DNA of 64,000 bases from a phage (GCA_012441205.1 GCA_012441205.1_4705.1), one strand, 5' to 3'. Numbered from the stretch's first letter, positions 24,842-41,922 are shown. Numbers and translations are program-made. The notes: generated by a model not told the origin, from the sequence alone.

Positions 24842-27800
24842 TTATTTGGCGTCGTTAAAATAAATATCAACAGCTCGTTCCGTTGCGTAGAGGAGACCAA
24901 GATTCACAGTCCCAACCACTTCCGGTGAACCGATGATACGGTTAGCGATACTGGTGCCACTGAAGATAGCATCAAGGGTGTGCCCGTCTTCGGTTTTGTT
25001 CACACCATGACCCACGGAAGAGACAACGGATTTCGCTTGAGCTGCGAAGGTACCTTTATCGCCCATCCCCGCACCAAGGTCGTAACGCATGAAAATACGG
25101 ATTGCGATCTGGTTCTCGCCTAACGGATTACCGTCTATTCTCACGTTACTGTTATTGATACGCCCCGTAGTTGCTTCGTTGAGTTTCAGTTCCTTAACGC
25201 GTTTAGCTCGCGCTTTATCTGCATCACCGACGAGCGCCGCCATGGTTTCACTCATATCCTCAATCTGAGCGCGGTACAGCACATCGATCTGTACAACTTC
25301 ACCATGAACGTCAGCACGTGGGTTATACTGACTCATACGACGTAATGCTTCAACGGCTTCCTGACTCTCATCACTCAGATCGGTCGCAATCGGTTCTTCC
25401 AGTGTTGCAAGGATCGTTCGTGGTTCAACATGATCGCCGATTTTCACGAGACCACGAATGTTGAGATGGGCGTCAACGATGAGCGTACGGCTCTTAATCG
25501 ATGGTGTTACGAGACGATCGGCAAGATTGTCGAAGATATACGAACTGTCCTCGTGAGTCTCTGGAATATCCAGAATACCGACAAGAGACAGAACACCTGC
25601 GCGCCAAACAACCTGACCTGGGTTCCACCAATCGCGTTTAAAATAAAGACGATGGAAGACCACCACATCCTGATCCTTAACGCGATCCCCGACTTTATAA
25701 TCGGTAATGAGATCGTGAGGATAATACTTACCTGGTCCTTTCCCGATTATCGTACCGAGCTGGAAAACCTCTTCCCCTAACTCTGGATCGTCGTATTGTA
25801 TCGTCAGCGCAGTTTTGGTGACCTTCTTAACAACACCGTCACCTTGGGCGGCAGCTGCAAAGAGTTTACCAACACGATGCGCGATGACAGTCTCACCGCC
25901 GGTGCGCCACGGTTGTACATCGTAACCCTCAGCGGCAATCATGCGGTTGTGTTGGATCCCGACGAAGACCAGACGTTTTCCATCATCACGGTCTACAGCC
26001 GGAACAGCTAACGCTGACGTACTCATTACCGATGAGATGCCGTCTGTCTTTTCATCGAATGGTCGTGTTTCACCATACACCGACACGATATTAGCATTAG
26101 GTGCAAGGTAAGCAGAGATACCCACATCCCCACTATCTTTCGTACCCTCTGACACAATACCAACATCGGACTTGTCGTATTCACGATCACGTGCGCGTCG
26201 AAGCGATGTCTTTGAACGACCCCCGATACCGGTCATCGTTGCTTCTTCACCCTGCTTGATATCCAGCATCGGGTTGGTTTCATCGATCACGATGGACGCG
26301 CTGTCGTCGAGAATTTGGTTCCAGACACTTACCGGACTGATTGAGATTTTCTGGCGGTTTCCTTGACTGCTGTTCTCATTCTGACGAATAGCGCCAACCA
26401 GATCCTTATACACCAATTCAGCGAACTTATCGTACGTTTTAAAACGTTGGTAGTTCACATCGTTCGTGTTAGGTGCCCAATCATCCAGAAGCAGTTCAAC
26501 AGCACGCAGTAACAACATGGCGAAATCGGTAGGTTCTCCCATGTTCTGTAGCAACGTACGGCTTACCGGATCAACGAAAAGACGCTCCATGAGTTCAAGT
26601 TCGCGTAAATGGCGAACCTTAAGTCCGGCACCATCGACAACGTTAAAATAGATATCTCGATTGTCGAAAGCACCGCGAGCGTAACCGATGTAGTTACGGT
26701 ACTCGTTAAATCCGCCCAGCAACAACGTCGTCATGCGATCGTCTTTACTGAAGATCAAACTTTCGTCATCAAAGCTCACCGCGAATTCATCGGGTGCTAG
26801 ACCCATACGAGAACCGCGAGGTACCGTACGATAGTTCGCTTTAAGATGTTCTAATAACGGGGTAAGTCCACCCAGATAACTTAGAACAACACCAACCGGA
26901 ATACGTACACCCATGAATTCAAGATCGGCGGCTTCGATCGGCATCTTAGCCGCATTGATACCGAAGAAATCAGGGAACGTCCCTACAGGTGTTGGTGTTT
27001 GTCCTGACTGACAGATATAGAGCTGATTGCGTTTATCGATTGCTAAGAATTCACCCAGCGTGTTACGCGCAAACGTCAGGAGCCCTTCGGCTAACTGTTC
27101 GTTGAACCGATCTTCCCCGATGAACTCCGGTAGCGTTTTTATATCGAGACGTATATCCCAATCAGCAAATTGGATTTGGGTATAGTTGCGTGCAAGCACA
27201 GCGAAGTAATACGGGACTTTGACGGCCGGATCAAAGACGTTACCACGTTTTAACGTGGTTAAGGGTGAGGACTTATCGTAATACATCGCTGTAAGTTGGC
27301 GTGTTAACCAACGACCGGCGTTATTAACGACACGCTCTGAACGTTTAACAAACACCTTACCGTAGGCGGTACTCAACGCAACTTCGGATGATGATACCTT
27401 TCTAATAGGTTTATCAACACGTTGTTTACGCATCCGGTATTTGATGCCGTTAACGACATAAATGCCGTCCTTACGAACCTTCGGCAACATCACCGGGAAC
27501 GTGGTTGGGACACCGCCTACAGGGGCCAGTTTAATCGTGATGACTTGATAATCCCCCATCACGTCAACAACATCTTCAACTTTATATCCCGTGACAGGGT
27601 AACCTGCCTGTTGTACGGCAACAACAGCGGCTGCGATGTCCTTTTGCATCACGTGTTCAACGTAATGTTTATCCCACACCGCAAGCGTCGATTTACATAG
27701 GCTCTTATCGACGATAACATCCGCTTCCGGCATAACCTTTGCTGGCGCTAATTTCGCGGCTTTTGGTTTAACTTCAACATACTCAGCAAGTGTTAATCCA

Positions 27801-29188
27801 GAACCGTCGGGTGCTTCGATTTCATGGATGGCGTCAGCATTACGCATCGCTGCTTTATATTGGACGCCGCTTAACTGACCCGCATCAGCCAGATCGCTCG
27901 CGCGTACCAACACCGCATCCGATAACGACTGAATATATTCACCGTGCGTTTTTGGTAACGTTGCCGCGTCAAAGACATCAACCTTTTCTTCTTCGGTATC
28001 GTCGGTAACGACTTCGAAGAGATCGTCGGTAATGTCCTGATCTTCATCAGGTTGAAAATCCGGCTGTACTTCTACCCCGGGTACTTCACGGACATCTTCG
28101 AACGAGCGTTCTACAATGGCGTTCCACGCATCAGCGTCATCGTCTTCATCCGACCCACCAACCAACTCCGCTTCTAACTCATCGGAATCAAGAACAGTGG
28201 CCAGATCCTCACCGTTAGGAAGCACGACGTCGCGATCATCGTACTCTGCATCCGGGCTGTCCGCAAGAATATCTCGCTCTTGACGAAGAACCTGTTCCTC
28301 TTCTTGTTTCTGTTCTTCTTCATTCGCGCTCTGCGACCATAGACGTGTTACCGCCATCATCCAACGACGCTGGAAGGTTTCGAGTGTCGTTTTATCGAGT
28401 TCTTCCCCTTCCTTTACAAGCCCGGTACGCCATTCTTCCAACAGGCCGAGATTCAGCGTAAAGAAGTACACACCGTCTGTAAATACAACGTTAAGCTTAT
28501 CCAGCGTGGCTCTGTCTAACGAAGCCATTGTGCTGTTCTCACGATCGGTTCCCAACCAGCGGAAGAAGTCAAAGAACGACAGCTCCTCCGGCGTGGCGAA
28601 ATTCATGAGGTTGTTACGGGTCGGTGCCTGTTGCGTGGTACGCATCAACGAAATCTTCGGCAATGTTGACGGTATACGGAACAACAAAAAGTGTTGGCGA
28701 TCGCTTTGCTGCGCGATTTCGTTGGCTTTCGACCAAATTGTTTTACGTACGTTGAACCATTCATCATACCAACGGGTGAGCGTTGGACGATAGATGTACA
28801 TGTGGTTAAGATGTGCGTAGTTAGCAACGATCTGAGCGTTGATGTTTTTCTCCACCGTACTTAGATCGGTAACCAAACGAAAACGACGATGTGACGCACG
28901 ATAATCCAATTTCGCTCGTGGGAGCTGGAATCGCTGATCACGTCGAGGTGCACCCTGTTTGGTTGCGAGATCATCAGCAAACGAAATCCATAGTTGAGCA
29001 CTTTCTTTACTCAACATGTATTCGTTTTCTGGAGGACCTATCAATGAAGGATCCGTTGCGGTGTAATGATAGACAGCATAACGTGGCAGCTGCAATAGCT
29101 GCACTAAACGTAATCTCGGTGACAATAGCTCTTGGTATCGTCTGACGCCAAACTGTCGGTAGTAATCAAGGTATTTAAGTTTTGCCAT
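24842..29188 (-). CDS. multisubunit RNA polymerase beta-like subunit (divergent)
   Basis: 1448 aa. GIGGRSK...DVGIVSEGTKDSGDVGI parallels the bacterial beta region GPGGLTRER...GRVCPIETPEGPNIGL, and GMGDKGTFAAQAKS...DAIFSGTSIANRIIG parallels GDKMAGRHGNKGVIS...DIVLNPLGVPSRMNIGQ (E. coli beta recalled from memory). Contains a long acidic insertion. GGAG RBS 8 nt before the ATG at 29188. Confidence 0.65.
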   Translation of the reverse strand: MAKLKYLDYYRQFGVRRYQELLSPRLRLVQLLQLPRYAVYHYTATDPSLIGPPENEYMLSKESAQLWISFADDLATKQGAPRRDQRFQLPRAKLDYRASHRRFRLVTDLSTVEKNINAQIVANYAHLNHMYIYRPTLTRWYDEWFNVRKTIWSKANEIAQQSDRQHFLLFRIPSTLPKISLMRTTQQAPTRNNLMNFATPEELSFFDFFRWLGTDRENSTMASLDRATLDKLNVVFTDGVYFFTLNLGLLEEWRTGLVKEGEELDKTTLETFQRRWMMAVTRLWSQSANEEEQKQEEEQVLRQERDILADSPDAEYDDRDVVLPNGEDLATVLDSDELEAELVGGSDEDDDADAWNAIVERSFEDVREVPGVEVQPDFQPDEDQDITDDLFEVVTDDTEEEKVDVFDAATLPKTHGEYIQSLSDAVLVRASDLADAGQLSGVQYKAAMRNADAIHEIEAPDGSGLTLAEYVEVKPKAAKLAPAKVMPEADVIVDKSLCKSTLAVWDKHYVEHVMQKDIAAAVVAVQQAGYPVTGYKVEDVVDVMGDYQVITIKLAPVGGVPTTFPVMLPKVRKDGIYVVNGIKYRMRKQRVDKPIRKVSSSEVALSTAYGKVFVKRSERVVNNAGRWLTRQLTAMYYDKSSPLTTLKRGNVFDPAVKVPYYFAVLARNYTQIQFADWDIRLDIKTLPEFIGEDRFNEQLAEGLLTFARNTLGEFLAIDKRNQLYICQSGQTPTPVGTFPDFFGINAAKMPIEAADLEFMGVRIPVGVVLSYLGGLTPLLEHLKANYRTVPRGSRMGLAPDEFAVSFDDESLIFSKDDRMTTLLLGGFNEYRNYIGYARGAFDNRDIYFNVVDGAGLKVRHLRELELMERLFVDPVSRTLLQNMGEPTDFAMLLLRAVELLLDDWAPNTNDVNYQRFKTYDKFAELVYKDLVGAIRQNENSSQGNRQKISISPVSVWNQILDDSASIVIDETNPMLDIKQGEEATMTGIGGRSKTSLRRARDREYDKSDVGIVSEGTKDSGDVGISAYLAPNANIVSVYGETRPFDEKTDGISSVMSTSALAVPAVDRDDGKRLVFVGIQHNRMIAAEGYDVQPWRTGGETVIAHRVGKLFAAAAQGDGVVKKVTKTALTIQYDDPELGEEVFQLGTIIGKGPGKYYPHDLITDYKVGDRVKDQDVVVFHRLYFKRDWWNPGQVVWRAGVLSLVGILDIPETHEDSSYIFDNLADRLVTPSIKSRTLIVDAHLNIRGLVKIGDHVEPRTILATLEEPIATDLSDESQEAVEALRRMSQYNPRADVHGEVVQIDVLYRAQIEDMSETMAALVGDADKARAKRVKELKLNEATTGRINNSNVRIDGNPLGENQIAIRIFMRYDLGAGMGDKGTFAAQAKSVVSSVGHGVNKTEDGHTLDAIFSGTSIANRIIGSPEVVGTVNLGLLYATERAVDIYFNDAK

Positions 29189-29380: not shown

Positions 29381-29450
29381 CGCCTCAGGTCGCTACGCTG
29401 AGACCGCCTGCATGGATACGTACATCACAGGCTGCTTGCACTTTCATGCA

Positions 29451-29756
29451 AGAGGAGACTATATCAAACCGGCAGCACAACCTGCTACGGTAACCTACAC
29501 TTCGAAGACGCTCGTCCTCTACAGGGTGGTAAATCCCTTAGTCGTTGAACCTGCGTTGTTTCCCATTCTTGCAAACAAGAATGCCGTATTGCTACGCAAC
29601 AACCAGGCTGCTGATTGCCCATTGTTTCGCACCTTAGCACCGCTTACGCGGCTTTTCTTTCAGCCTAAGCCTCTTACGGAGTTAGTGCATCTCAACTGTT
29701 GTTTCTGCCTTTCGGCACCTCATGGGTCGTTGAGCTTTAGGGGTTCCCAGCAATTC
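29451..29756 (-). ncRNA. group I intron catalytic core (P3-P9 region)
   Basis: P, Q, R and S elements as above; GNRA-loop hairpins flank the core (CCCGAAAGGG near 29775-29790 and CTTGCATGAAAGTGCAAG near 29435-29452). Confidence 0.7.
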
Positions 29757-29805
29757 GTAGGTTTTTCAAGCACTCCCTTTCGGGAATACCGGACTCATTA
29801 TTAGC

Positions 29806-31278
29806 TTATTTATTCAAGTATCTGAAATCCCACTTATCTTTACGTCGTTTATCGCACTTAATGTCAGGATGATTAACACGATGCCTAATAGTTGTTGCCG
29901 ATAGCTGGCTGAGATTCTCAGCAGATCGTGCGCCAAGAACAACGAGTTTTGTGTCGTCTGGACGCGTAACTTCTACTGCCCGATAATGCTTACGTAACAC
30001 ATCACGCCAATATTCACGACGTTCTGGTTCAGCATACTCAAGCATGTAACCGTTAACATCTACTAAACCGTAGCTTTCGTTTAATCGAGAGGTAGCGGCT
30101 GGTTTACTAATACCGATTGCTTTAGCCGCATCGACCACGGTTTTATACGGGGTCTCATTACCGTCTCTATCTACAACCACAATGAAATCTGGACGTGAAT
30201 CGAGTAGCTGCTGTCTGCGTTCGACGGCTTGTTGATGAAGCACCATGTTAACGTGTTCGAACCCGTAACCTTCTGGGCCACGCCATCCTGGATTGTTGTT
30301 CGCTCGATAAAGTATCGTCGATGATTTCACTCCAGTCTGACGCGATGCCTCGTTTGCGCTATGAACAACCGTGGTAGAGCCATCAGGATGATATATCCGT
30401 ATCTGGTTCATTATACCGGAACCAATGAAGTTACCATCGGCTGATTTAATGTCCGGCCATGGTTGCGGGTCATCTTTGAATTTAACCACCCAGCGGTTGT
30501 TAAACAGCTTAACTTTTCGAACATGTTTGCCTAATGTCGTATCCGTAACACCTGCGACCACTGACGCTTGTGTAATGCTCAGGTACTCAGTAACGGTATC
30601 GTTCCAAGTATCCCAGAGCAGAACCGGTTTATTGTCGTCACGTAAACCATGTTCGATAGCATGCAGGACATTACGACTTCTGGTTGCCCATTCCAGATTG
30701 TCAAGAGAATAGTTCCACTTATCAGCATCAAGATGATTAACGTCCATCTTATCGACATTAGCCGGATATTCCCGCCACGCCAACATCAAGCAGCGATGTA
30801 AAACCTTAGTTCTCGTTGTATCTCGACAATCGTGACGTAGACTAATGAATACGTAGTTATCCTTTTTCGGATACGATCTGCATTCCTGTCCATCCTTGCG
30901 GGAGATAACTCGCCCTTTCTCATTTATCAGATAACGAGTATGTCCAGGAATAACACGATAACCAGGGTACTTAGCGATCTCATAAGCAGGCTCGAAACGA
31001 TAGGATAAGTTATCAACATCCCAATTAGATTCGTCGCCGTCAACAAACATCGCTTTGACGTACTTCTGTGTTTCAATATCAACCAGGATGTTTTTGTGTG
31101 CGATACAAATCAATGCTGGGATATTGAATTCGCGACCAGCTAAAGTAACAGTGTCGCCGTTTCTCGGTATCGCGACGTGGGTATCACGATACCGTAAGTT
31201 TCCATAGCCGTCTATTTCAATCCAGCTCAGAAACGGAATAGATATAAATTCTTTTTCAGATACTCGCCATTTAAACAT
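29806..31278 (-). CDS. HNH homing endonuclease (intron-encoded)
   Basis: 490 aa; HNH motif VNHLDADKWNYSLDNLEWATRSRNVLHA and an N-terminal NUMOD4-like segment YPGYRVIPGHTRYLINEKGRVIS; own ATG at 31278 with AGGTG RBS; located in the 5' peripheral region of the intron. Confidence 0.8.
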   Translation of the reverse strand: MFKWRVSEKEFISIPFLSWIEIDGYGNLRYRDTHVAIPRNGDTVTLAGREFNIPALICIAHKNILVDIETQKYVKAMFVDGDESNWDVDNLSYRFEPAYEIAKYPGYRVIPGHTRYLINEKGRVISRKDGQECRSYPKKDNYVFISLRHDCRDTTRTKVLHRCLMLAWREYPANVDKMDVNHLDADKWNYSLDNLEWATRSRNVLHAIEHGLRDDNKPVLLWDTWNDTVTEYLSITQASVVAGVTDTTLGKHVRKVKLFNNRWVVKFKDDPQPWPDIKSADGNFIGSGIMNQIRIYHPDGSTTVVHSANEASRQTGVKSSTILYRANNNPGWRGPEGYGFEHVNMVLHQQAVERRQQLLDSRPDFIVVVDRDGNETPYKTVVDAAKAIGISKPAATSRLNESYGLVDVNGYMLEYAEPERREYWRDVLRKHYRAVEVTRPDDTKLVVLGARSAENLSQLSATTIRHRVNHPDIKCDKRRKDKWDFRYLNK

Positions 31279-31344: not shown

Positions 31345-32820
31345 CTAAATTGAATCACCACCAAGTCCGGCGAGGTATGGCGCAGGGACAATAGTCGTTT
31401 CTACGAACGAAGCATTAGGTAACCAGTCGGGGTATTCCCATGCGATAAATCGTTCATCCGTTATTGGTTCCCAGTTACTATCCAGTTCGGTTTTCGGTTT
31501 TGCGGCGACGGTTGTACGTGCGTAACAGGTTAACGGGATAACGGATTGCATACCTGATACCGGATAACGTGTTACCATCGCAGCCAGGTTATTCCAGTAC
31601 TTATATCCGGCAATATAGATAAGCTCGGTGTAAGTAATGGGGTGAACATCCGCGCCAGGTTTATTCAACATCTCCGGGGGTAATTCACTCATGTCACGGA
31701 ATAACCGAAACGAATCGTTGTTCACATAGACGAGGCAAAGATATCGTCCATTGACCATGATAGGCTCGTTACGCACGCCAGGATCGCTTAAGGTGTTCAG
31801 TAAACGTTCTATTCCGTCCCATGTTGTAAAGTCATCGATGGTGTCTGGATCAAGCGTGACGCGCTCACGTTCCATCGTTTCGGTATCAATAAGTTCAACT
31901 TCTGTAACATCACGGACAAATATTTCCTGCAAAATACCGGTACGTAACGCATGTTGCGTTACTGGGAGAGCGGCTTTACTCATCTGGTATAACCCTAACT
32001 GAACCGCGGTACAGGAAGGCTGGTTAGGCGACCCTAATACCTCCGTTGTGGGGTTAATTGCCGAAATAACGTTACGGGTTGAGTTCCAAACGCGACGTGA
32101 ACCAAACTTACCTTGGAAGATCCCTTTCTTACCCTGGAACATATCCAACAGTAAAGCGTAGATATCGTTGAATGTTCTCTGTAAGCTCCAGCGCTGGCCG
32201 TCGTAAACGGGATCGGAATAATCTTTTAATCCATCAGGGACGGTGTTAGAAATTGCAAGGAAACGACGATACAACTCCGTGATTTCTTGCTCGCTTTCAT
32301 ACCCACCTTCTTTTACTTCTATTTCACGTAAGCCTGCAGGCAATACCAGTAAGTGACGGGTCATCGCTTTGAACATGTTCTCTTCGACAACTTTAATTCG
32401 TAGCTCTCGTTGAGCTGAACCCGTTGAAACGAACTTGATATCCGCGACGTGTTGTGCAAAGAACCCGTATCCTGTTTGTCCTGTTAATGCATCAGACGCA
32501 ACGAAGTCGCGTTGTTCGGGATCCCACCGAGCGTACGCCTTCCCCGACATGATATCGCCATAGAGGTGTTTTAATCGAATGAGACGGTCGTAAATGACAG
32601 GATGCAGGATTTCAACCTTGCATTCAATCACCGCAAATCGACGGTCTCGATCTTCACTACCCGCACTACCAAAGATGGTGTAAGAATAGAAACCATCATC
32701 GTGGAAATTACCGGTGCTTGGGTCACGAATGCTCATGCTCGTGATCTTGGGGAGAAAACGTAACTGCTGTTTATCGAGGTGTAAAATACTAATATTAAAC
32801 GGCTCTCTGACTTTAGCCAT
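31345..32820 (-). CDS. RNAP beta-prime-like N-terminal subunit, exon 1 at ORF level (last about 57 codons are probably intron sequence)
   Basis: Start moved to the ATG at 32820 (MAKVREPF..., AGAGGAG RBS about 9 nt upstream). MFQGKKGIFQGKFGSRRVWNSTRNVISAINP matches the beta-prime [27 protein letters not shown] region, and TRYPVSGMQSVIPLTCYA matches NRAPTLHRLGIQAF...HPLVCAA. The ORF then runs into a stop at 31345 without the expected DFDGD; the likely 5' splice site is near 31516. Confidence 0.65.
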   Translation of the reverse strand: MAKVREPFNISILHLDKQQLRFLPKITSMSIRDPSTGNFHDDGFYSYTIFGSAGSEDRDRRFAVIECKVEILHPVIYDRLIRLKHLYGDIMSGKAYARWDPEQRDFVASDALTGQTGYGFFAQHVADIKFVSTGSAQRELRIKVVEENMFKAMTRHLLVLPAGLREIEVKEGGYESEQEITELYRRFLAISNTVPDGLKDYSDPVYDGQRWSLQRTFNDIYALLLDMFQGKKGIFQGKFGSRRVWNSTRNVISAINPTTEVLGSPNQPSCTAVQLGLYQMSKAALPVTQHALRTGILQEIFVRDVTEVELIDTETMERERVTLDPDTIDDFTTWDGIERLLNTLSDPGVRNEPIMVNGRYLCLVYVNNDSFRLFRDMSELPPEMLNKPGADVHPITYTELIYIAGYKYWNNLAAMVTRYPVSGMQSVIPLTCYARTTVAAKPKTELDSNWEPITDERFIAWEYPDWLPNASFVETTIVPAPYLAGLGGDSI

Positions 32821-33065
32821 GGAGACACTCCTCTTTACCACCACCGGCTGCGGCGGTATCATCTGAACACACGAGAGACGTAATGGGTGATGGCGTCACC
32901 CATCGCTTCCTTGCTTGAGGCGAGGAAGTTATTAGGTTACGTACCTGCCTGATTTTATCAGGTGGGCGATGTGTGAAGTTACGCTTCAACATTATCAATG
33001 CCGAAGGTAAACTTCGTGCATCACGTTCCAACGTAACATGGGAACGTATCGAACTGGAGGTATAC

Positions 33066-36000
33066 ATGGTAGATAAAACCCGTGTTGAGGGTGATGATAA
33101 TTGGGACAACTGGGATGAAGACTTCTCCCTGGATCTCGATTTTAACGAACCCAAAGACGATCGTAAACCGATAACACGCTTTGCGATAGGAGCGGTTAAA
33201 GGTGCTGCTGAGGATCTTACTTCCTACGAAAGAATGAAGGAGATCGCCAGAAACGCATTGCCTAAGGGCTACAGCGACGGTATGGATCTTATTGATTCCG
33301 CCGTCGGATCCACGAAGGAACTATACAATGAAGCCGTTCGTGACGTTCTTCCTAAGGTCCAAAGCTCAAAACGGTTAGCCGCACAACTGACCAAGAAATA
33401 CCGTGCGAGCATGCCCGATTTCTCGAAGAAAATTCTTGAACAATGGGAGCGAGAAGCCAAGGAAGAAGACGAACGTAAACAAGCTGAAGAAACCCTTCGT
33501 CAACGCATGGCGAGCGCGGGGGACGATGAGATCGCCCGCAAGGTTGCCGAGGCATTAGGCGAATCAGCAAACCAAAGCGCGGATCAGTTCGCTGAACAGC
33601 AAGCGAAAGAGAGTATCCGTGACGATATCGCTGACAAACGGTACGCTGTAACCAACAAACAAATGAGCGCGATGCAAGAAGGCGTCGCCAAGATGGTTGG
33701 TTTCAACAACGAATTCGCTGCACGCTACATGCGTAAAAGCCTGGAACTGAAATATCGTTCCTTAGCGATTCAACGTGCAAGTTTTGATCAGCATAAAAAG
33801 TTAGCCGAAGTCTATATCGGTTTATTACAAAACATCCAGAAGAATACGGCTTTACCTGATGCGGCTAAAGCAAAAATGTCGGAAGAATTCCGCCGTAGCG
33901 CGTACCAACGTTTCTTTGGTAATGCGTTAGATGCGATGAGTTCTTTCGAGAACCGTTTCTTTGCCGATGTTAAGAAGAACCTTGCCACCAACGCATTAGG
34001 CGCTTTAAAAGGTGTCGTGTCCGGCGCAAACGATGCGTTATACGGTTTAAACGAAGCGCGTGACTCGATGTCCATGATGGACGGGATGGGGTCAGAAGGC
34101 GATATTAAGGAAATGCAAGGAAAGATGTTGGGTCAGTTCATTGGCTCAACTGTCGCGCCGTGGATGGCTAATAAAGGCAGGATGGCGTTACGCGATTTAG
34201 CAAAACGTCACCCCAATGCTAAATTCGCTAGCGCATTAAAAGCCGTGGATCAAGGTGGTGAGGCTGCCGCTTACACGACGCGTAATCTCGGTAAACTGCT
34301 CCAGGAAGATATTCGTAAAAACGAATTCAATCTTAGCGATCCGTTTTACAAGCAATTGTTACGCGGTGCAGGGCGTTGGGCGTTCAACATGGACAGCGGA
34401 CGTAACTTCCGCGTGATGAACGACACCGCTGAAACACTGGCGGAGCAAACATCTTTCGACGGTTTAACTTACCGCAGTATCAATGAAGTTATTCCTGGTT
34501 TTCTTGCACGCATTCTGAAAAGCAGTGAAGGTATCCGCACCGGAAACAGCGATCCTGACTACGAGGTCTATGACGGCATCAGCGGACAATTCGTGTCTCA
34601 GCGCACGCGTGAACAAAGCGTCAATGACACGCTGTTTAACAAACGTACATTTGGTTATTACGCCAGCCGTTTCAACGAGGTTATCTCGGTCATCGATCCC
34701 GATAAGCAATTATCGGAAAAAGCCAGAAAGGCGCTGGCCAAGCAGTTGGCGCGAGATAGCGACGCGAACATCGCATTCGACCCGGCTCGTTTTACGGATG
34801 AAAGCAACTTCGATCGTAGTATTGACCGCGACGCTATTAAGGAACTTTCCACGTACTTTCGTGACCGTTACGGTATTCGTGATGATGTCAACGATAAGGG
34901 CGAACGTCATCAGGTCATTGGAAACCGCGGGCAATATTACACGGAACGTAACCGAGCCGATCTTCGTTACGGTCATCTGAAATCTTTACAACCGGATATC
35001 CAGCGTAACCTTAACCTGCTGAAACGTACTGGTGACGTCCAATATCTGGAACGGATTGGGATTGTAACGAGAAATAGCGACGGAAGCTACTCGGTTAATC
35101 ACGATCGGTATTTCTCTGAAATCGATCAATACATCGACCGACCGGAGTACGCTGACCGCGGCGATGTCAATACGCGATTAACCGCTCAGGAAACAAGAGC
35201 GCTGGCGCTGGGTTATCGTGACGCAAAACCATCAGCTGGTGACGTCCAAAATGTCGGCCTGCCGAACATCGGTCGTAAGGCTGCTGGAACAGTAACCGTT
35301 GATGAAAACATCGGCTACGATAAATGGTGGAACGACACAGGTGTTATCACCACATCGCTTGAAGAACAGAATCGAGCGTGGCAAGAGCTTTATCTCGAGG
35401 CGTTGTCCGAAGCATCCGAACAACGTGTTGAAATGCTTGCGCTGCTGAAAGCCATTTCTGAGAAAGACTGGTCTAATAACGTTTCGCTGGATGGTGAAGA
35501 TGTACCTGAAGGTACAGCACCCATTTCATTTATCGATCGTGCCAAACAAAAACTCGGCGGACGCAACCTGTTTAAAGGCGGCCGCAATCTCCTCTGGAAA
35601 GGAATTAAAAATACCGCACGTTTAGGTGTTAAAGGCGCACGCTGGGGTGCAGAACGCACGTTGGGTAGTTTGGTAAATTCTGGCCGACGCATTATCAATT
35701 TCAACCGCTTCGTGTTCGGCGCATTATCCAAGGTTGATCAGGTTCCGTTTGACATTTACGTTAAAGGGGAATCCCAACCACGCATACTGGCTGCCAAACT
35801 TCGTCAGGGGTTATACTTCGACGAAGCGACAGGAAAAGCCGTAAAACGGATGAAGGATATCAAAGGCCCACTCGTTGATGCGGATGGAAACATCGTAATC
35901 AGCAACGAGGATATCGAGAAAGGGTTGGTCACTCGCGCTGGTCGTGCCTTTGAGAATTCAGGACTTAAAGCATGGGCACGTGAAGGTCTTAATGGAATAA

Positions 36001-39000
36001 CGACGGCATTAAGTCTCCCACGGATGTTAAAACGCGGTGCGGTTGAGATCTACAAACAGCTTGACAAAACACCCGACGTTTACGTCAAGGGAGAATCAAC
36101 GCCTCGTCTGTTGTCCATGGTGTTAGCAGCGGGTGGGTATTTCCGTCGCTCGGATGGACAAGTCATCAAAAATCTTGAAGACATCGATGGTGATGTTGTT
36201 GATGCACAAGGTAACGTCGTACTTACGCTTGCCGACATGCAGAAAGGACTTGTCGATAAATACGGTAAAGCGATTCGTCGTTTAAAAGAAAAGCTCATCA
36301 ACTTCGGTGTAAAAGCTTTTACGTTACCGTTAACGTTGCTACGTAAGACAAAGGACATCCTTAAAGCCCTTCCAGGTAAAACCGTTAACGGTCTACGGCG
36401 GATGGGATTAAATTTCCAATCACCCGACGCATTACTGGTGGGAACAACGTCGAGCATGGTAGATCGCCTCGATGCTATTTACCAGCTTCTTGACCAGCGT
36501 ATGCCGGGAGGTGATAAGGATTACCGCGATTGGAATGGCGATGGTGTTCGAGAAGGATCGTTGGAAGACCTGAAACGTAAGCGTGAAGCCAAGGAAAACG
36601 GTAAGGATGACATCGGCAAAGATTCCAATAAAGGAGAAGAAAAGGAGAAGAAACGAGGGTTACTCGGAAGCCTTTTCGATATGCTCGGTGATACCGCAAT
36701 AGGTAAACGTCTCATGGCGAGTCCGCTTGGAAAAATTCTGGGTGGTCTTGGGGCGGTGTTAAGCGGCGGTGCGTCGTTAACTGGGTTGTTGGGCAAAGGT
36801 CTCATTAGAGGAACCGGCGCGCTGGTCAAGGGAGGACTAAGTGCGGCAGGATGGTTAGGACGTGGTGCGTTAATGGCGGGTGGGGCCGCGTTGAACGCCG
36901 TTGGTGGGTTATCGGGATTAGGTGCATTCCTCATCTCACCTGTTGGGCTTGCTATCGCTGGCGGTGCGTTGGCTGCTTATGCTGGATGGAAGATCTATCA
37001 GCATTTCGCCGAGAAGCCTGACCCGATGCAGAAGCTCCGTCTTATTGCATACGGTGCAAAAGGGGATGATAAAGACTTCAATAAGAAGCTGCTTGCGACA
37101 GAAACATACCTCACCGACCATGTGGTCATGACCGGGGATACCATCGGATTCGATCCGAAAGCCGATTCTGAAAAGATTCTCGAAATCTGGGAATTGTCTC
37201 TGGAAGATTCCGACCGAATGAACGAATGGAAACGCTGGTATCTGCATCGTTTTATTCCTGTTTTCGCTCGTGCGTACAAACTCTGGAAAGAGCATATGCC
37301 GGACGAGAAGAAATACATGGAAATGGATAAATATCCGAACGGTGAGAACAAAGTGAAATGGTCGGAAGCGTTTATCTGGCCTTCCGATAGTCCTGATGGT
37401 CCGTATTACGTCGAAGCTAACCCGTTGGGTTCTTCTGGTGCGACGCGTTATATTGCTGGTCAAGACGTCAAAACCTTGATGCTGAAACAGCTCGAAGCCA
37501 TCAAGAAAGAGTACCAGAATCAGATTAAGCAATACACTCATGATGAGGCTATTGCTGATTGGTCACGGATGTCTGACACACAACGTAAATCCGTTGCGCC
37601 TAACGCATTACGTGGTCAGAAAGCGTCATTACGTTTTAACGATAAACGTTACAACAGCGCTGGTGCTAAAGGACGACAGAAACTGGATGCAACCGCGGTT
37701 ATTGAAAGCGTAGACCGTCGTGGTAGAAAATGGGTTGCCGGTGGATACATCGATGAACTCACCAGTCTCCGTGTTCGTGCGTACGGTATTAAGGTTCCGT
37801 TGTTAAGTCAGATAAAAGTGCTGATGGAACTCGAAGACGCTGTAGAACCTGGCGTTGTCGCTGAAGGTAAAGGTGTTAAATACGGTGGCGATCTTGTCGC
37901 GCTCTACAAGAAATTCGCGACGAAGTTCGGAAGAGACGTTAACAGCAAGCATGATCAGGATATCTGGTTTGCTTGGATGAACAACCGTTTCCTGCCCGTC
38001 TTTTTAACCTATTACCAACAAGTTAGCGACATGGGCGGTCAAGGACTTCTGTCCGACGTGGTACAGAACCTGAAAGACAGCCAACGTTGGGAAATCGGTG
38101 AAGAACTTGTCGCAGCGCAATACCGTGATGAGAAAGGTACACTGCAGCCCGTATGGTCGTGGAACAGTTGTGGTTTCTCCGGTACTGAAGCTAACACCAC
38201 CAGCAGTTCAACAAAGAGTCAGCTCGATCTGTTAAAAGAATATGCGGATAAAGAGAAGGTTCGTGAGAAGAACGCGGAAGCATCGCAAGAGGATACCGAT
38301 AAATTATCGAAGATCCAAGAGCTGATGATGAAGCAGGCTGGGTACGAGAAGAAAGACGGTGTCTGGCAGAAGAAATCTCGCATTACCGGCGGGATGAGTA
38401 ACTCCGAAGCGAATTACAACCCCAATGGGAATAAGGTCGGTGCAAGCAGCTTTACTGCTTCAGCTACTTCCAGTGCGGGATTGGGGTCAACCGGCGATCT
38501 TACCGGATTGCCTAACATGGGCTTACAGAAACCTGCAACGGGGCCAGGTCCCGAAGCTGGACGTCGTGCGCTTGTTAAATCCGCTGTGAAACGCGGTATT
38601 ACCGATCCAATGGAAATGGCGATGTTCCTTGCAAACATCGAACATGAATCGGGGAACTACACTCACGTACGTGAGGGGAACTATAAGACACCAGAGCATC
38701 TTAAACAGGTCTTCCCTTACAAATTCCGTGACGTGCAGGATGCAGCGCAGACGATTAGCATGGGGCCGGAAGCGGTGTTCGAACGCGTGTACGGTAATCG
38801 TAAAGACTTAGGGAACACGCAGAAAGGAGACGGGGCGAAGTATTTAGGACGTGGCTTCATTCAGGTTACCGGTAAAGCTAACTACGCTCGTCTGTCCAAG
38901 ACCTTGAATAAAGATCTTGTCAGCGATCCATCATACCTGGAAACGCCGGAAGGTGCGGCGGAAGGTAGTGTCGCGTGGTGGCTCAACCGAGGCAATGTGT

Positions 39001-39731
39001 TACGCGATCCTGCGAAACGGGGTGATGTGCGCCAAGTTCGTTATCTGGTTAACGGTGGCTATAATGGATTACGTGACGTTGAACAGCGCTCTGCTTATTG
39101 GATTCAGGCGGCTAAGAATGGCACCCTGAAGAAAATGATGGATGAGTTATCGGGATCAACATCAGGCGATCAAGCTGAAGGACCGACTACCGCCGAGCAG
39201 GTGAAGAATGAAGCAGCCCAAGAGGCAAACGGAACGCCAACTGTAAGCAACGATCCGCAAGCCCCAGCACCTTCAACCACCCCTGAAGCTAAACCGTCTG
39301 CGGCTGCCGGTACGGCTCCAGCACCCGGAGAAGCATCACCAGCGCCTGGAAGTTTCGAAACAGCGAAAGCTGCGGCAGGACAACCGACATCAACGCCAGC
39401 ACTTAGCGATTTGCCGTCAAACCCTGGCGCAAATCGAGGGATATCGGTTCCGAATACGCCTGCACAGGTCGCGCAGTCTGCGACACAAACATCGGCCGCG
39501 AGTGAGAACTTCTACGGTAGCGCAGGTGAAATTCTCCGACAGCAGCTGACCACGCAGCAGAACATCGAGAAGAACACCGGTAGAACGAATGAACTTATTT
39601 CGGAATTAATCCAAGCCGTTAAGGGTTCTTCTATCGGTAAGGGTTCTGCAAGTCCTTCTCAACAACAGGCGATGTCGCTACCTAATCGTCCGCAAGGAAT
39701 CTCTCCAACACGGACAAGGTACGCGCAGTAG
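33066..39731 (+). CDS. giant virion-associated protein with C-terminal GH19 lysozyme domain (phiKZ gp181-like by size and architecture)
   Basis: ORF track starts at a GTG (32973); the ATG at 33066 has GGAGG about 5 nt upstream, giving 2221 aa. Near the C-terminus MAMFLANIEHESGN and YLGRGFIQVTGKANY match the GH19 catalytic region (AFLAQTSHETTG and YYGRGPIQLS patterns). Also a Gly/Ala-rich hydrophobic segment (about 36650-37000), two tandem ~105-aa repeats (about 35745-36380) and a Pro/Ala/Thr-rich C-terminal linker. Confidence 0.7.
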   Translation: MVDKTRVEGDDNWDNWDEDFSLDLDFNEPKDDRKPITRFAIGAVKGAAEDLTSYERMKEIARNALPKGYSDGMDLIDSAVGSTKELYNEAVRDVLPKVQSSKRLAAQLTKKYRASMPDFSKKILEQWEREAKEEDERKQAEETLRQRMASAGDDEIARKVAEALGESANQSADQFAEQQAKESIRDDIADKRYAVTNKQMSAMQEGVAKMVGFNNEFAARYMRKSLELKYRSLAIQRASFDQHKKLAEVYIGLLQNIQKNTALPDAAKAKMSEEFRRSAYQRFFGNALDAMSSFENRFFADVKKNLATNALGALKGVVSGANDALYGLNEARDSMSMMDGMGSEGDIKEMQGKMLGQFIGSTVAPWMANKGRMALRDLAKRHPNAKFASALKAVDQGGEAAAYTTRNLGKLLQEDIRKNEFNLSDPFYKQLLRGAGRWAFNMDSGRNFRVMNDTAETLAEQTSFDGLTYRSINEVIPGFLARILKSSEGIRTGNSDPDYEVYDGISGQFVSQRTREQSVNDTLFNKRTFGYYASRFNEVISVIDPDKQLSEKARKALAKQLARDSDANIAFDPARFTDESNFDRSIDRDAIKELSTYFRDRYGIRDDVNDKGERHQVIGNRGQYYTERNRADLRYGHLKSLQPDIQRNLNLLKRTGDVQYLERIGIVTRNSDGSYSVNHDRYFSEIDQYIDRPEYADRGDVNTRLTAQETRALALGYRDAKPSAGDVQNVGLPNIGRKAAGTVTVDENIGYDKWWNDTGVITTSLEEQNRAWQELYLEALSEASEQRVEMLALLKAISEKDWSNNVSLDGEDVPEGTAPISFIDRAKQKLGGRNLFKGGRNLLWKGIKNTARLGVKGARWGAERTLGSLVNSGRRIINFNRFVFGALSKVDQVPFDIYVKGESQPRILAAKLRQGLYFDEATGKAVKRMKDIKGPLVDADGNIVISNEDIEKGLVTRAGRAFENSGLKAWAREGLNGITTALSLPRMLKRGAVEIYKQLDKTPDVYVKGESTPRLLSMVLAAGGYFRRSDGQVIKNLEDIDGDVVDAQGNVVLTLADMQKGLVDKYGKAIRRLKEKLINFGVKAFTLPLTLLRKTKDILKALPGKTVNGLRRMGLNFQSPDALLVGTTSSMVDRLDAIYQLLDQRMPGGDKDYRDWNGDGVREGSLEDLKRKREAKENGKDDIGKDSNKGEEKEKKRGLLGSLFDMLGDTAIGKRLMASPLGKILGGLGAVLSGGASLTGLLGKGLIRGTGALVKGGLSAAGWLGRGALMAGGAALNAVGGLSGLGAFLISPVGLAIAGGALAAYAGWKIYQHFAEKPDPMQKLRLIAYGAKGDDKDFNKKLLATETYLTDHVVMTGDTIGFDPKADSEKILEIWELSLEDSDRMNEWKRWYLHRFIPVFARAYKLWKEHMPDEKKYMEMDKYPNGENKVKWSEAFIWPSDSPDGPYYVEANPLGSSGATRYIAGQDVKTLMLKQLEAIKKEYQNQIKQYTHDEAIADWSRMSDTQRKSVAPNALRGQKASLRFNDKRYNSAGAKGRQKLDATAVIESVDRRGRKWVAGGYIDELTSLRVRAYGIKVPLLSQIKVLMELEDAVEPGVVAEGKGVKYGGDLVALYKKFATKFGRDVNSKHDQDIWFAWMNNRFLPVFLTYYQQVSDMGGQGLLSDVVQNLKDSQRWEIGEELVAAQYRDEKGTLQPVWSWNSCGFSGTEANTTSSSTKSQLDLLKEYADKEKVREKNAEASQEDTDKLSKIQELMMKQAGYEKKDGVWQKKSRITGGMSNSEANYNPNGNKVGASSFTASATSSAGLGSTGDLTGLPNMGLQKPATGPGPEAGRRALVKSAVKRGITDPMEMAMFLANIEHESGNYTHVREGNYKTPEHLKQVFPYKFRDVQDAAQTISMGPEAVFERVYGNRKDLGNTQKGDGAKYLGRGFIQVTGKANYARLSKTLNKDLVSDPSYLETPEGAAEGSVAWWLNRGNVLRDPAKRGDVRQVRYLVNGGYNGLRDVEQRSAYWIQAAKNGTLKKMMDELSGSTSGDQAEGPTTAEQVKNEAAQEANGTPTVSNDPQAPAPSTTPEAKPSAAAGTAPAPGEASPAPGSFETAKAAAGQPTSTPALSDLPSNPGANRGISVPNTPAQVAQSATQTSAASENFYGSAGEILRQQLTTQQNIEKNTGRTNELISELIQAVKGSSIGKGSASPSQQQAMSLPNRPQGISPTRTRYAQ
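35745..36380 (+). repeat. internal tandem duplication (two ~105-aa protein repeats) inside the giant gene
   Basis: Protein segments PFDIYVKGESQPRILAAKLRQGLYFDEATGKAVKRMKDIKGPLVDADGNIVISNEDIEKGLV... and TPDVYVKGESTPRLLSMVLAAGGYFRRSDGQVIKNLEDIDGDVVDAQGNVVLTLADMQKGLV... align position by position. Confidence 0.6.
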
Positions 39732-39780: not shown

Positions 39781-41922
39781 ATGGGTATTCTTGTTCAAAA
39801 CGCCCTAATCACCAAACAGGCGTTTTTATTACCGGGCGATAGCAGCACGCTTAGTGCTGACATGATTAAAGCGAGACATACACCGTATTCCTACGATAAC
39901 GTCGATGATACCACCTTAGGCGGGAACTGGGTGCTTAACCCACCACCGCAATATACCAAATTTGCCGACATCAAGGAACGCCGACGTGCGGTTATGCCTG
40001 GATCAACGGGCATGGGCCGAGGCTATAGTGAAAGCATTAACAGCTTTAAAGAGGTCGTTACGTTACGATTCGGTAAACCTCGCTTTACAGGCGCAAGTAT
40101 CTTCTTTACTGATTTCTACGATGCCGATGTTGCCGTAACGGTTAAAACCGGTCGCGATCCCGGTATTCTTTATTACGCAGCCAAAGCGTATACCACCGTT
40201 CTTTCTTACCTCACACCTCTACCCTACTTGTATATGGTTGGACGTATCGGTCGATATTTCCTGGGTAAGCCTACCAGTCAATATTACTATCAAGTACCAA
40301 CCATGCACGTGTATTGGGCGTCTTTCCAAACGCTGGTAAACCAAACAGCGATAAACATGGGTCTTATCGCCGGTGCCGGTAAAGATAAAGGCTATGTGGA
40401 AGAAGGGGGTACCGTACTCCACCAATATTCAATCGGTGGTCAGAACGTTGAAGAATTCATCAACTACGCCTCTAAGACGCTACCGGGGATTTATAAGAAA
40501 GGTGGTGGGATCGATATCTACCAGATCGCAACACGACGTCAGCGCATACAGAACGCATGGGTACGTCGTATTCAATCCATGATGGAAAACGATTACTCGT
40601 CTTACGAGGAGTTCTGGAACGATCTTGATAAACGACTTGATAGCGGAGCATTTCCATCGGATGTAACCGGCCGTACGTTAACGCAGTATCTCGCCGACAC
40701 GCAGAAGTCTGCTGTTTACAGTGCGACAGCTGGTGATAATAAACAAACGATGGACGACCTTTTATTTGGAAGAGCCTCGTACACCAATAAAGATGCCGAT
40801 GCTAACTTCAATGTCTCAGCGGCTACCTCCGACGGCGGTACGTCAACACAGAGTCAGGGTACAACAGCCAATGTCGGTAATTCGACGTCAGGGACAACGC
40901 AGGCTTCAACAACAGCATCAACGGCTGGAGGCGCGAACGTACAGAGCAAAGGAATCGGTCAAACGAACGCAGCCGAAGAAGCTACGTTTCTTGATCTGAT
41001 GGATGCTGAACTGGCCGATGGTGCTCAGTTTATCAGTTTTCGAGTCGACTCTGTCACCAGTGTAACCGAAACGTTTTCAAACAGCGCTTCAGAAAGTTCA
41101 ATCGCACAGACGATGAATAGCCGTGCACAAGCGAACATCGAACGTCGTTTCACCCTCTCCGGTGGTAATACAGGTTGGGCTGTACTAGACGAAGCCATCA
41201 AAGCCGGTTCCGATCTCGTTAATGGTGCTATTTCCGGGATGGGCCTGGATGGTATTTTTGGTGCCTTCATGGGTTCCGGCTTCGCCGACATTCCGAAATT
41301 CTATTCCGGATCATCGGTAAGTCTTCCGCGTGCAGATCTGACGATGGAATTGCGTTCCTGGAGCGGGGACCGCTGGTCGATCTTTACGAACCTCATGGTA
41401 CCTCTTTTAGCGATCCTTGCAGGTGGTTTACCTCAGGCTACCGGTAAATCGTCCTACGGGATGCCGTTCATGTGTGAGTGTTATATTCCAGGTAAAGTCC
41501 AGATTAAAATGGGCCTTATCGATAATATCACTGTGACGCGCCATGTTGGAAACGTACCATCAACACGCGAGCGATTACCGTTGGGGATCGACGTCAGCTT
41601 CAGCGTTTATGACCTGTCGTCTATCGTCGCCATGCCGATCACAACGACGGCCGCATCGATCGCAAAATTGGATCCTCGTGGCTTCTTAAGCGATCTTCTT
41701 GCTGACGATACGCCGCTCAACAACTATCTTGCTGTATTATCAGCATTGACACTTACGGAACAAGTTTACATGATTCCGGATTTAAGTCGTCGCATGCATA
41801 AAACCATGGCTGATATCGATAGTTTCTGGAGCAAAGGTAATTTTGCTAGCTGGTTGTCTGACACCATGCCTGGCAGGATAGCATCAGGGCTGTTATGGAA
41901 ACGTACAGAACGGCCGTTCTGA
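39781..41922 (+). CDS. hypothetical protein, possibly virion structural (713 aa)
   Basis: Follows the giant gene on the same strand; contains a Ser/Thr/Gly-rich linker; no catalytic motif seen. Confidence 0.5.
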   Translation: MGILVQNALITKQAFLLPGDSSTLSADMIKARHTPYSYDNVDDTTLGGNWVLNPPPQYTKFADIKERRRAVMPGSTGMGRGYSESINSFKEVVTLRFGKPRFTGASIFFTDFYDADVAVTVKTGRDPGILYYAAKAYTTVLSYLTPLPYLYMVGRIGRYFLGKPTSQYYYQVPTMHVYWASFQTLVNQTAINMGLIAGAGKDKGYVEEGGTVLHQYSIGGQNVEEFINYASKTLPGIYKKGGGIDIYQIATRRQRIQNAWVRRIQSMMENDYSSYEEFWNDLDKRLDSGAFPSDVTGRTLTQYLADTQKSAVYSATAGDNKQTMDDLLFGRASYTNKDADANFNVSAATSDGGTSTQSQGTTANVGNSTSGTTQASTTASTAGGANVQSKGIGQTNAAEEATFLDLMDAELADGAQFISFRVDSVTSVTETFSNSASESSIAQTMNSRAQANIERRFTLSGGNTGWAVLDEAIKAGSDLVNGAISGMGLDGIFGAFMGSGFADIPKFYSGSSVSLPRADLTMELRSWSGDRWSIFTNLMVPLLAILAGGLPQATGKSSYGMPFMCECYIPGKVQIKMGLIDNITVTRHVGNVPSTRERLPLGIDVSFSVYDLSSIVAMPITTTAASIAKLDPRGFLSDLLADDTPLNNYLAVLSALTLTEQVYMIPDLSRRMHKTMADIDSFWSKGNFASWLSDTMPGRIASGLLWKRTERPF

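Follow-up and report, generated by a model that had tools for sequence, protein, structure and literature searches.

Proteins related to gp181 of Pseudomonas phage phiKZ form an already described family of giant tail proteins in the Chimalliviridae (PHROG 3201). For phiKZ gp181, a lytic (muralytic) activity has been measured (review PMC5380687). In Salmonella phage SPN3US, the homologue gp239 has been named a tape measure protein; it is missing from tailless particles and strongly reduced in the tail-tube amber mutant 255(am107). A comparable combination of functions is known from phage T5, whose tape measure Pb2 has fusogenic and muralytic activities. The present analysis concerns the gene at 33066-39731 (+) of a 64,000-nucleotide (nt) stretch of phage DNA (GCA_012441205.1_4705.1; the whole stretch is called the window), which shares 96% identity with the Chimalliviridae member vB_EcoM_Goslar, a nucleus-forming jumbo phage of Escherichia. 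By sequence and gene order, the product of 2221 amino acids (aa) is an orthologue of phiKZ gp181 and SPN3US gp239, an identity that the original prediction for this DNA had missed. In this Goslar-like phage it is probably a tail tape-measure-type protein of the tail lumen with a virion-borne lysin. The original prediction had proposed an ejected virion protein that digests peptidoglycan and interacts with the membrane during DNA entry; this interpretation is supported and can be sharpened to a tail-lumen tape measure and lysin, which would work much like T5 Pb2.

Relationship to phiKZ gp181, SPN3US gp239, and Goslar

The whole protein matches PHROG 3201 with an E-value of 1.9e-295. BLASTP aligns it colinearly with phiKZ gp181 over aa 35-683 (E 5e-45) and from aa 887 to at least aa 1636 (E 6e-37), the second alignment taking in two internal repeats (A repeats) and a hydrophobic segment; in all, colinearity extends from aa 35 to at least aa 1636 and also spans both copies of a second duplicated module (B modules). 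The two proteins are of nearly equal length (2237 aa in phiKZ, 2221 aa here), share their synteny and carry a cell-wall hydrolase at the same relative position. However, they are only ~24-25% identical, and phiKZ gp181 carries an SLT-type lytic transglycosylase (Pfam PF01464, aa 1885-1978) as its lysin, whereas that of the window protein belongs to GH19. Homology and colinearity were also found with SPN3US gp239, which has homologous N-terminal and B-module regions and the same divergent neighbour encoding a virion RNA polymerase (vRNAP) subunit; this protein differs in its length (2372 aa) and its SLT domain, and when the two are compared pairwise, the A repeat can hardly be detected. In the window phage, phiKZ, and SPN3US alike, a divergent vRNAP subunit gene lies upstream and a large gene downstream, the gp182-like identity of the latter having been established by sequence for the phiKZ comparison. 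Scaffold homology, gene position, and a C-terminal hydrolase all place the protein among the phiKZ gp181-like giant tail proteins.

The closest relative is the Goslar counterpart (QBO64023.1 / YP_009820915.1), which is flanked by the same neighbours and corresponds to gp204 by its genome position between gp205 and gp203. Over the full length, the two genes are 96.0% identical in nucleotides and the proteins 98.2% identical in amino acids. GenBank labels Goslar gp204 "putative chitinase", and RefSeq calls it "tail fiber protein". The last 86 aa of the window protein match the Goslar clade only. The exact protein has been deposited as EFE5661924.1, a "hypothetical protein" of an E. coli assembly, and its 90% cluster holds 615 members, Salmonella assemblies among them; a search of complete RefSeq E. 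coli genomes gave no match. Goslar-like phages are known mostly from bacterial isolate assemblies (bioRxiv 10.1101/2024.12.31.630880), and the assembly deposits fit phages of this kind carried in isolate cultures, not prophages.

More generally, a search with aa 1-1800 returned 104 relatives of ~1000-3100 aa; the module counts given below are out of 105 family members. An exhaustive search with aa 1313-1770 returned 565 clusters at 50% identity; among the matches listed, nearly all are ~2000-3400 aa long and match at the same relative position. With aa 1-1200, tblastn matched 249 phage records, which among the matches listed are all of 210-322 kb. NCBIfam gave no match for the protein, and a Pfam match to Talin_R4 was rejected as spurious.

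Presence in the virion

The Goslar protein YP_009820915.1 is present in purified virions at low copy number: 34 peptides cover 24% of its sequence, its abundance is estimated at 3.4-8 copies, and it carries the label "Tail protein" (Table S4, bioRxiv 10.64898/2026.04.21.720040). Through this 98%-identical protein, the virion proteomics that had been suggested as a check bear out the proposal of a virion protein. Among the peptides detected in virions is AAAGQPTSTPAPSDLPSNPGANR, from the linker that follows the GH19 domain (bioRxiv 10.64898/2026.04.21.720040), and the C-terminal part is therefore at least partly retained in the virion.

The gene and its modules

The gene is real, with the extent first proposed for it (33066-39731, 2221 aa): the frame is open over 2221 codons without internal stop, and its translation, a Shine-Dalgarno sequence, and the start used for EFE5661924.1 agree on these limits. 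The longest mechanical open reading frame (ORF) opens at GTG 32973 and would give 2252 aa, which is the form in the Goslar GenBank record, with its GTG start 31 codons upstream of the ATG 33066 position. ATG 33066 is preferable to this GTG because GGAGG stands 5 nt upstream of it and because NCBI uses this start, hence the 2221-aa form, for the identical EFE5661924.1. N-terminal peptides able to settle the start codon were not found among the listed rows of the Goslar mass spectrometry (MS) table. Apart from the GTG start, the Goslar protein differs by 39 substitutions. Since the two genes show 265 nucleotide differences, only 39 amino-acid changes, and 0 indels, the whole ORF is under purifying selection.

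The features of the gene are listed below with their coordinates in the window and their strand; where the evidence is an AlphaFold2 (AF2) model, confidence is given as the predicted local distance difference test (pLDDT), and HMM stands for hidden Markov model.

33056-33060 (+): Shine-Dalgarno sequence GGAGG, 5 nt before ATG 33066, read from the sequence
33066-39731 (+): gp181-like tail tape-measure/lysin gene, 2221 aa plus stop, by translation
33168-34385 (+): N-terminal long helices, aa 35-440, candidate ruler part (AF2, low pLDDT)
34563-35135 (+): alpha/beta domain, aa ~500-690 (confident AF2 prediction, pLDDT 78-90)
35745-36008 (+): repeat A copy 1, aa 894-981, small beta-rich module (family HMM E 4.5e-31; pLDDT 70-77)
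36066-36359 (+): repeat A copy 2, aa 1001-1098 (BLASTP between copies, family HMM)
36657-36998 (+): Gly/Leu/Ala-rich, nearly acid-free hydrophobic segment, aa 1198-1311, 114 aa (composition, hydrophobicity)
37020-37514 (+): module B copy 1, core aa 1319-1400, domain to ~aa 1483 (HMM E 5.7e-26; pLDDT ~80-87)
37749-38369 (+): module B copy 2, core aa 1564-1647, domain aa 1562-1768 (HMM E 1.3e-13; pLDDT 77-93)
38571-39260 (+): GH19 peptidoglycan-hydrolase domain, aa 1836-2065 (profile, PDB sequence and fold matches)
39261-39458 (+): Pro/Ala/Ser/Thr-rich disordered linker, aa 2066-2131 (pLDDT < 50)
39459-39623 (+): C-terminal long helix, aa 2132-2186 (AF2, pLDDT ~55)

The N-terminal segment (aa 1-450) matches 101 of the 105 family members, and long helices are predicted with low confidence by AF2 for aa 35-440 and aa 759-892. 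The most conserved motif of the family, IPGFLARIL..IRTG (aa 476-493), adjoins the alpha/beta domain; P477, G478, L480, I483, R491, T492, and G493 are invariant columns of the family alignment. No significant fold match to the N-terminal 1200 aa was found in the PDB (best E 0.56), which leaves the alpha/beta domain and the A repeat unassigned. Beyond the family, the fold matches in BFVD were weak and pointed to siphovirus tape measure and minor tail proteins.

A tandem duplication of ~105 aa had been proposed at about 35745-36380. It proved to consist of two copies of ~95 aa each (nt 35745-36359) with a period of 324 nt, 39% identical by BLASTP (E 1e-23). Tandem Repeats Finder reported no DNA-level array there and only two trivial 11-nt repeats, because the copies are too diverged at the DNA level and are seen at the protein level only. 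The A repeat occurs in 99 of the 105 members, in 1-6 copies and most often in 2; one member of 3095 aa (P0007) has six. Module B constitutes a second, older internal duplication, which was absent from the original prediction: its two copies are 28% identical (BLASTP, E 2e-5), and one family HMM matches both. It is present twice in 63 of the 96 family members that have it. The module is conserved family-wide and was found only in these giant proteins. In a PDB fold search with the C-terminal half, all significant matches were to GH19 proteins, and the B modules had none.

Between the two duplications lies the hydrophobic segment, which begins with GLLGSLFDMLGD at aa 1198 and ends with GGALAAYAGWKIY at aa 1311. 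The stretch of about 100 Gly/Ala/Leu-rich residues seen originally is confirmed here by composition and by Eisenberg hydrophobicity. Residues 1205-1312 contain 26% G, 19% L, and 18% A; aa 1210-1315 form the longest acid-free run of the protein (106 residues), and uncharged runs of 20 and 42 residues lie within the segment. Over 21 residues, Eisenberg hydrophobicity reaches 0.42 or more only in this segment, with a peak of 0.73 at aa 1284-1304. Two candidate membrane spans, aa 1221-1241 and one within aa 1267-1308, flank a cationic amphipathic stretch (aa 1242-1259). This composition and the analogy with T5 Pb2 suggest that the segment may interact with, or insert in, a membrane. Most family members have an equivalent Gly/Ala-rich, acid-poor window of 80 aa in mid-protein. 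The repeats and the hydrophobic segment are old family traits, not peculiarities of this gene, and the second duplicated module is likewise shared by the family.

Near the C-terminus, family alignments show a heptad-like Leu pattern. By analogy with the tape measures of T5 and phiTE, the C-terminal helix is a candidate anchor in the baseplate hub.

On the opposite strand, three antisense ORFs of 125-201 aa (36080-36457, 36521-36934, and 36936-37541, all -) face the stretch that holds repeat A copy 2, the hydrophobic segment, and module B copy 1. Rather than being real genes, they probably result from the codon composition of the sense gene. Scans for sigma-70 promoters and terminators yielded no more than expected from shuffled sequence and were left aside.

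The GH19 domain and the exchange of lysins

A GH19 lysozyme domain had been predicted in the C-terminal region, with a profile search as the proposed check; profile, sequence, and fold searches all recover phage endolysins. The domain matches PHROG 181 ("endolysin") with an E-value of 2.4e-52. By sequence, the C-terminal region matches solved GH19 endolysins, namely 9eoi (E 1.3e-23), 7r6s, and 4ok7 of SPN1S (E 6.8e-19). In a Foldseek search of the PDB, for which the query was the AlphaFold model of aa 1828-2028 (pLDDT ~80-92), the matches were 9ms7 (TM score 0.75, root-mean-square deviation 2.7 A), 9eoi (TM score 0.74), and 7r6s (E 4.4e-8), followed by GH19 chitinases. The Pfam GH19 profile PF00182 stayed below its gathering threshold (18.5 bits with the whole protein and 23.0 with the domain alone, for a cutoff of 25.5) and its match covers only profile positions ~102-141. 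Despite this sub-threshold Pfam score, the phage-oriented profiles and the PDB searches are decisive for the assignment to GH19 from sequence and model.

The two motifs cited in the original prediction are confirmed, at aa 1852 (nt 38619) for AMFLANIEHESGN and at aa 1926 (nt 38841) for YLGRGFIQVTGKANY. Catalysis in GH19 involves a general acid in an HES/HET motif and a second Glu a few residues downstream. Here both are present, nine residues apart: E1861 (nt 38646-38648, in IEHES) and E1870 (nt 38673-38675, in VREGN), which align with the catalytic Glu residues of 9eoi and 7r6s and are kept in all 10 GH19-bearing family members. The domain resembles the GH19 endolysins of SPN1S (4ok7), P. aeruginosa (9eoi), and KTN6 (gp46, 8p8e), with the same fold (TM score ~0.7-0.75), ~27-31% identity, and the same spacing of the Glu pair, and it is predicted to be muralytic. 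Those endolysins are free proteins of ~200 aa that act from within at lysis, whereas the domain studied here forms the end part of a larger virion protein and would presumably work from outside, during entry.

What varies within the family is the lysin cassette. According to the Pfam columns of the search that returned the 104 relatives and a separate GH19 motif check, SLT is found in 54 members, GH19 in 10, PF21277 in 7, CHAP in 6, and M23, VanY, and PF18013 in 4 each. Some members carry two lysin modules. The nearest relatives of one GH19-bearing member (P0020) bear SLT and are 54-57% identical to it in the N-terminal 720 aa, and the lysin cassette has therefore been exchanged repeatedly. 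GC (guanine plus cytosine) content gave no sign of a recently acquired GH19 cassette.

Position in the tail and alternative explanations

Several observations weigh against a tape-measure-type protein in the tail lumen. The Goslar cryo-EM (cryo-electron microscopy) preprint neither models nor discusses gp204 (bioRxiv 10.64898/2026.04.21.720040), and the lumen location is suggested by analogy rather than by a structure placing the protein there. The Goslar tail tube has 46 layers of 39.2 A, that is, 180 nm (bioRxiv 10.64898/2026.04.21.720040), and 2221 residues at 0.15 nm each would extend over 333 nm, nearly twice that length. This excess and the presence of several folded domains mean that the protein cannot be a simple helical ruler. 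AF2 confidence is low for the helical parts and for the hydrophobic segment, and a glycine zipper in this segment was ruled out (GxxxG 3 observed vs 7.5 expected from shuffles; GxxxGxxxG 0). No tail-chaperone gene pair lies upstream, where the neighbour is the divergent vRNAP subunit gene; a chaperone pair with programmed frameshift before the tape-measure gene is the lambda/Mu-type arrangement and is not universal. Finally, reviews that summarise the older work of Briers 2008 and Fokine 2008 describe phiKZ gp181 as a "needle-like cell-puncturing device" and putative trimer, rather than placing it in the lumen.

This last description corresponds to the best-surviving alternative, that of a baseplate component of the cell-puncturing device, comparable to the spike-associated lysozyme gp5 of T4. 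The gene does adjoin a baseplate-hub gene, and an estimate of 3-8 copies is compatible with a trimer. However, in Goslar the spike is gp13, the spike cap gp48, and the tube initiator gp203 and gp62, with gp204 not among the modelled hub proteins; AF2 predicts no beta-helix, OB-fold, or spike fold, and later work names the homologues tape measure. Such a function is thus unlikely, and the proposal of a lumen protein is preferred. A trimer would fit the lumen by volume: in an assumed lumen of 4 nm x 188 nm, it would fill ~38% and a hexamer ~75%; the MS copy estimate of 3.4-8 does not separate the two.

Chimalliviruses package and inject many proteins, and the upstream flanking genes encode virion RNA polymerase subunits packaged in the head, which could point to a capsid-packaged ejection protein of the inner-body type, travelling with the DNA and not part of the tail. 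The absence of SPN3US gp239 from tailless particles and its reduction in 255(am107) speak for the tail instead, as do the low copy number and the label given by the Goslar authors, so that a capsid-packaged protein is very improbable. Even less credence can be given to a role as tail fibre or in receptor binding: the label "tail fiber protein" in NC_048170, NC_004629, and PHROG 3201 appears to have been spread by automatic annotation, no fibre, beta-helix, or carbohydrate-binding fold is predicted, a peptidoglycan hydrolase and a membrane-like internal segment are present, and the Goslar fibres and filaments are assigned to other proteins. The idea of a chitinase or an end-of-cycle endolysin, prompted by the GenBank product name, the weak Pfam "Chitinase class I" match, and the chitinases lower in the fold-search list, can practically be dismissed, since in sequence and in structure the domain comes nearest to phage endolysins, which act on peptidoglycan, and not to chitinases, it ends a 2221-aa virion protein, and homologues hold SLT, M23, CHAP, or VanY cell-wall enzymes at the same position.

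The names "tail fiber protein," "chitinase," and "endolysin" are widespread for the family in public records (NC_048170, NC_004629, PHROG 3201). None of them fits the evidence, and "tail tape measure / virion-associated lysin" would be more accurate.

As a separate observation on length, the region before the hydrophobic segment (aa 1-1197, 33066-36656) would measure ~180 nm at 0.15 nm per residue, which equals the tube length. This agreement is not relied on; it may be a coincidence, as the region contains non-helical domains.

Proposed mechanism of ejection

The stoichiometry, the orientation, and the ejection of the protein with its order can be proposed by analogy with known tape measures. 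A few copies, probably a trimer, would occupy the lumen of the ~180-nm tail tube, with the N-terminal half, largely helical, pointing to the neck and the C-terminal helix anchored in the baseplate hub beside the tube-initiator protein of the adjacent gene. When the sheath contracts and the spike is lost, the protein would be expelled with its C-terminus leading. The GH19 domain would emerge first and cleave the peptidoglycan locally, within the periplasm. Next would come the hydrophobic segment (aa 1198-1311), which would insert in a host membrane and open or line a passage for the DNA and co-injected proteins.

The same logic is found in T5 Pb2, which combines a long helical ruler, a hydrophobic stretch proposed as a membrane channel, and a C-terminal cell-wall enzyme, the hub holding its C-terminus. 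The tape measure of the myophage phiTE likewise binds the hub through its C-terminus. No sequence relationship between Pb2 and the window protein was found, however, and the two systems differ in several respects: the T5 tail is non-contractile, the enzyme of Pb2 is a zinc peptidase and not a glycosidase, Pb2 is about half the size, and a cleavage separates its hydrophobic stretch from its enzyme.

Nucleus-forming phages first deliver their genome into a lipid vesicle, the early phage infection (EPI) vesicle, which is thought to derive from the inner membrane; the literature passages covered here name no phage factor involved in forming it. The conserved hydrophobic segment, together with the two family-specific B domains, could conceivably form a virion component that inserts in the inner membrane and stays there as a conduit or seed of the EPI vesicle, in contrast to T5, where the DNA channel is only transient. 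This extension of the mechanism is speculative, and we regard it as improbable.

Neighbouring genes

The genes on either side of the gp181-like gene are the following.

31345-32862 (-): virion RNA polymerase subunit gene, 505 aa, homologue of phiKZ gp180 and counterpart of Goslar gp205 (BLASTP)
39781-41922 (+): tail-tube initiator gene, 713 aa, counterpart of Goslar gp203 and homologue of phiKZ gp182 (BLASTP)

The upstream product is 38% identical to phiKZ gp180 (E 1e-105), and Goslar gp205 is marked as vRNAP in Table S4 (bioRxiv 10.64898/2026.04.21.720040). Downstream, the product matches phiKZ gp182 with an E-value of 3e-59. Goslar gp203 (77.4 kDa) is annotated "Tail tube initiator complex" and belongs to a two-layer initiator that joins the tail tube to the spike cap (bioRxiv 10.64898/2026.04.21.720040).

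Farther upstream, a Group I intron was detected at 29435-29821 (-) of the window (Rfam RF00028, 57.8 bits, E 4.7e-12), where Goslar is annotated with Intron_gpI. It lies between an ORF of 1448 aa (24842-29188), which is Goslar_00228 and the positional counterpart of phiKZ gp178, and an ORF of 490 aa (29806-31278), annotated as similar to phiKZ ORF179. The 5' end of the intron overlaps the end of the 490-aa ORF by 16 nt, and a 130-aa ORF (29412-29804, +) lies on the opposite strand within the intron.

Implications

The gene in itself adds little, being a near-copy of an annotated Goslar gene from a family whose role as virion-borne lysin and probable tape measure has already been published. Of use all the same are the recognition that this family is widely mislabelled as "tail fiber protein" or "chitinase" and the domain map, which offers concrete targets for mutagenesis: the N-terminal helices, the globular domain, the A repeats, the membrane-like segment, the B domains, the lysin cassette, and the C-terminal helix. 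In nucleus-forming phages, this protein may be an obvious candidate for coupling tail contraction to the formation of the early infection vesicle.

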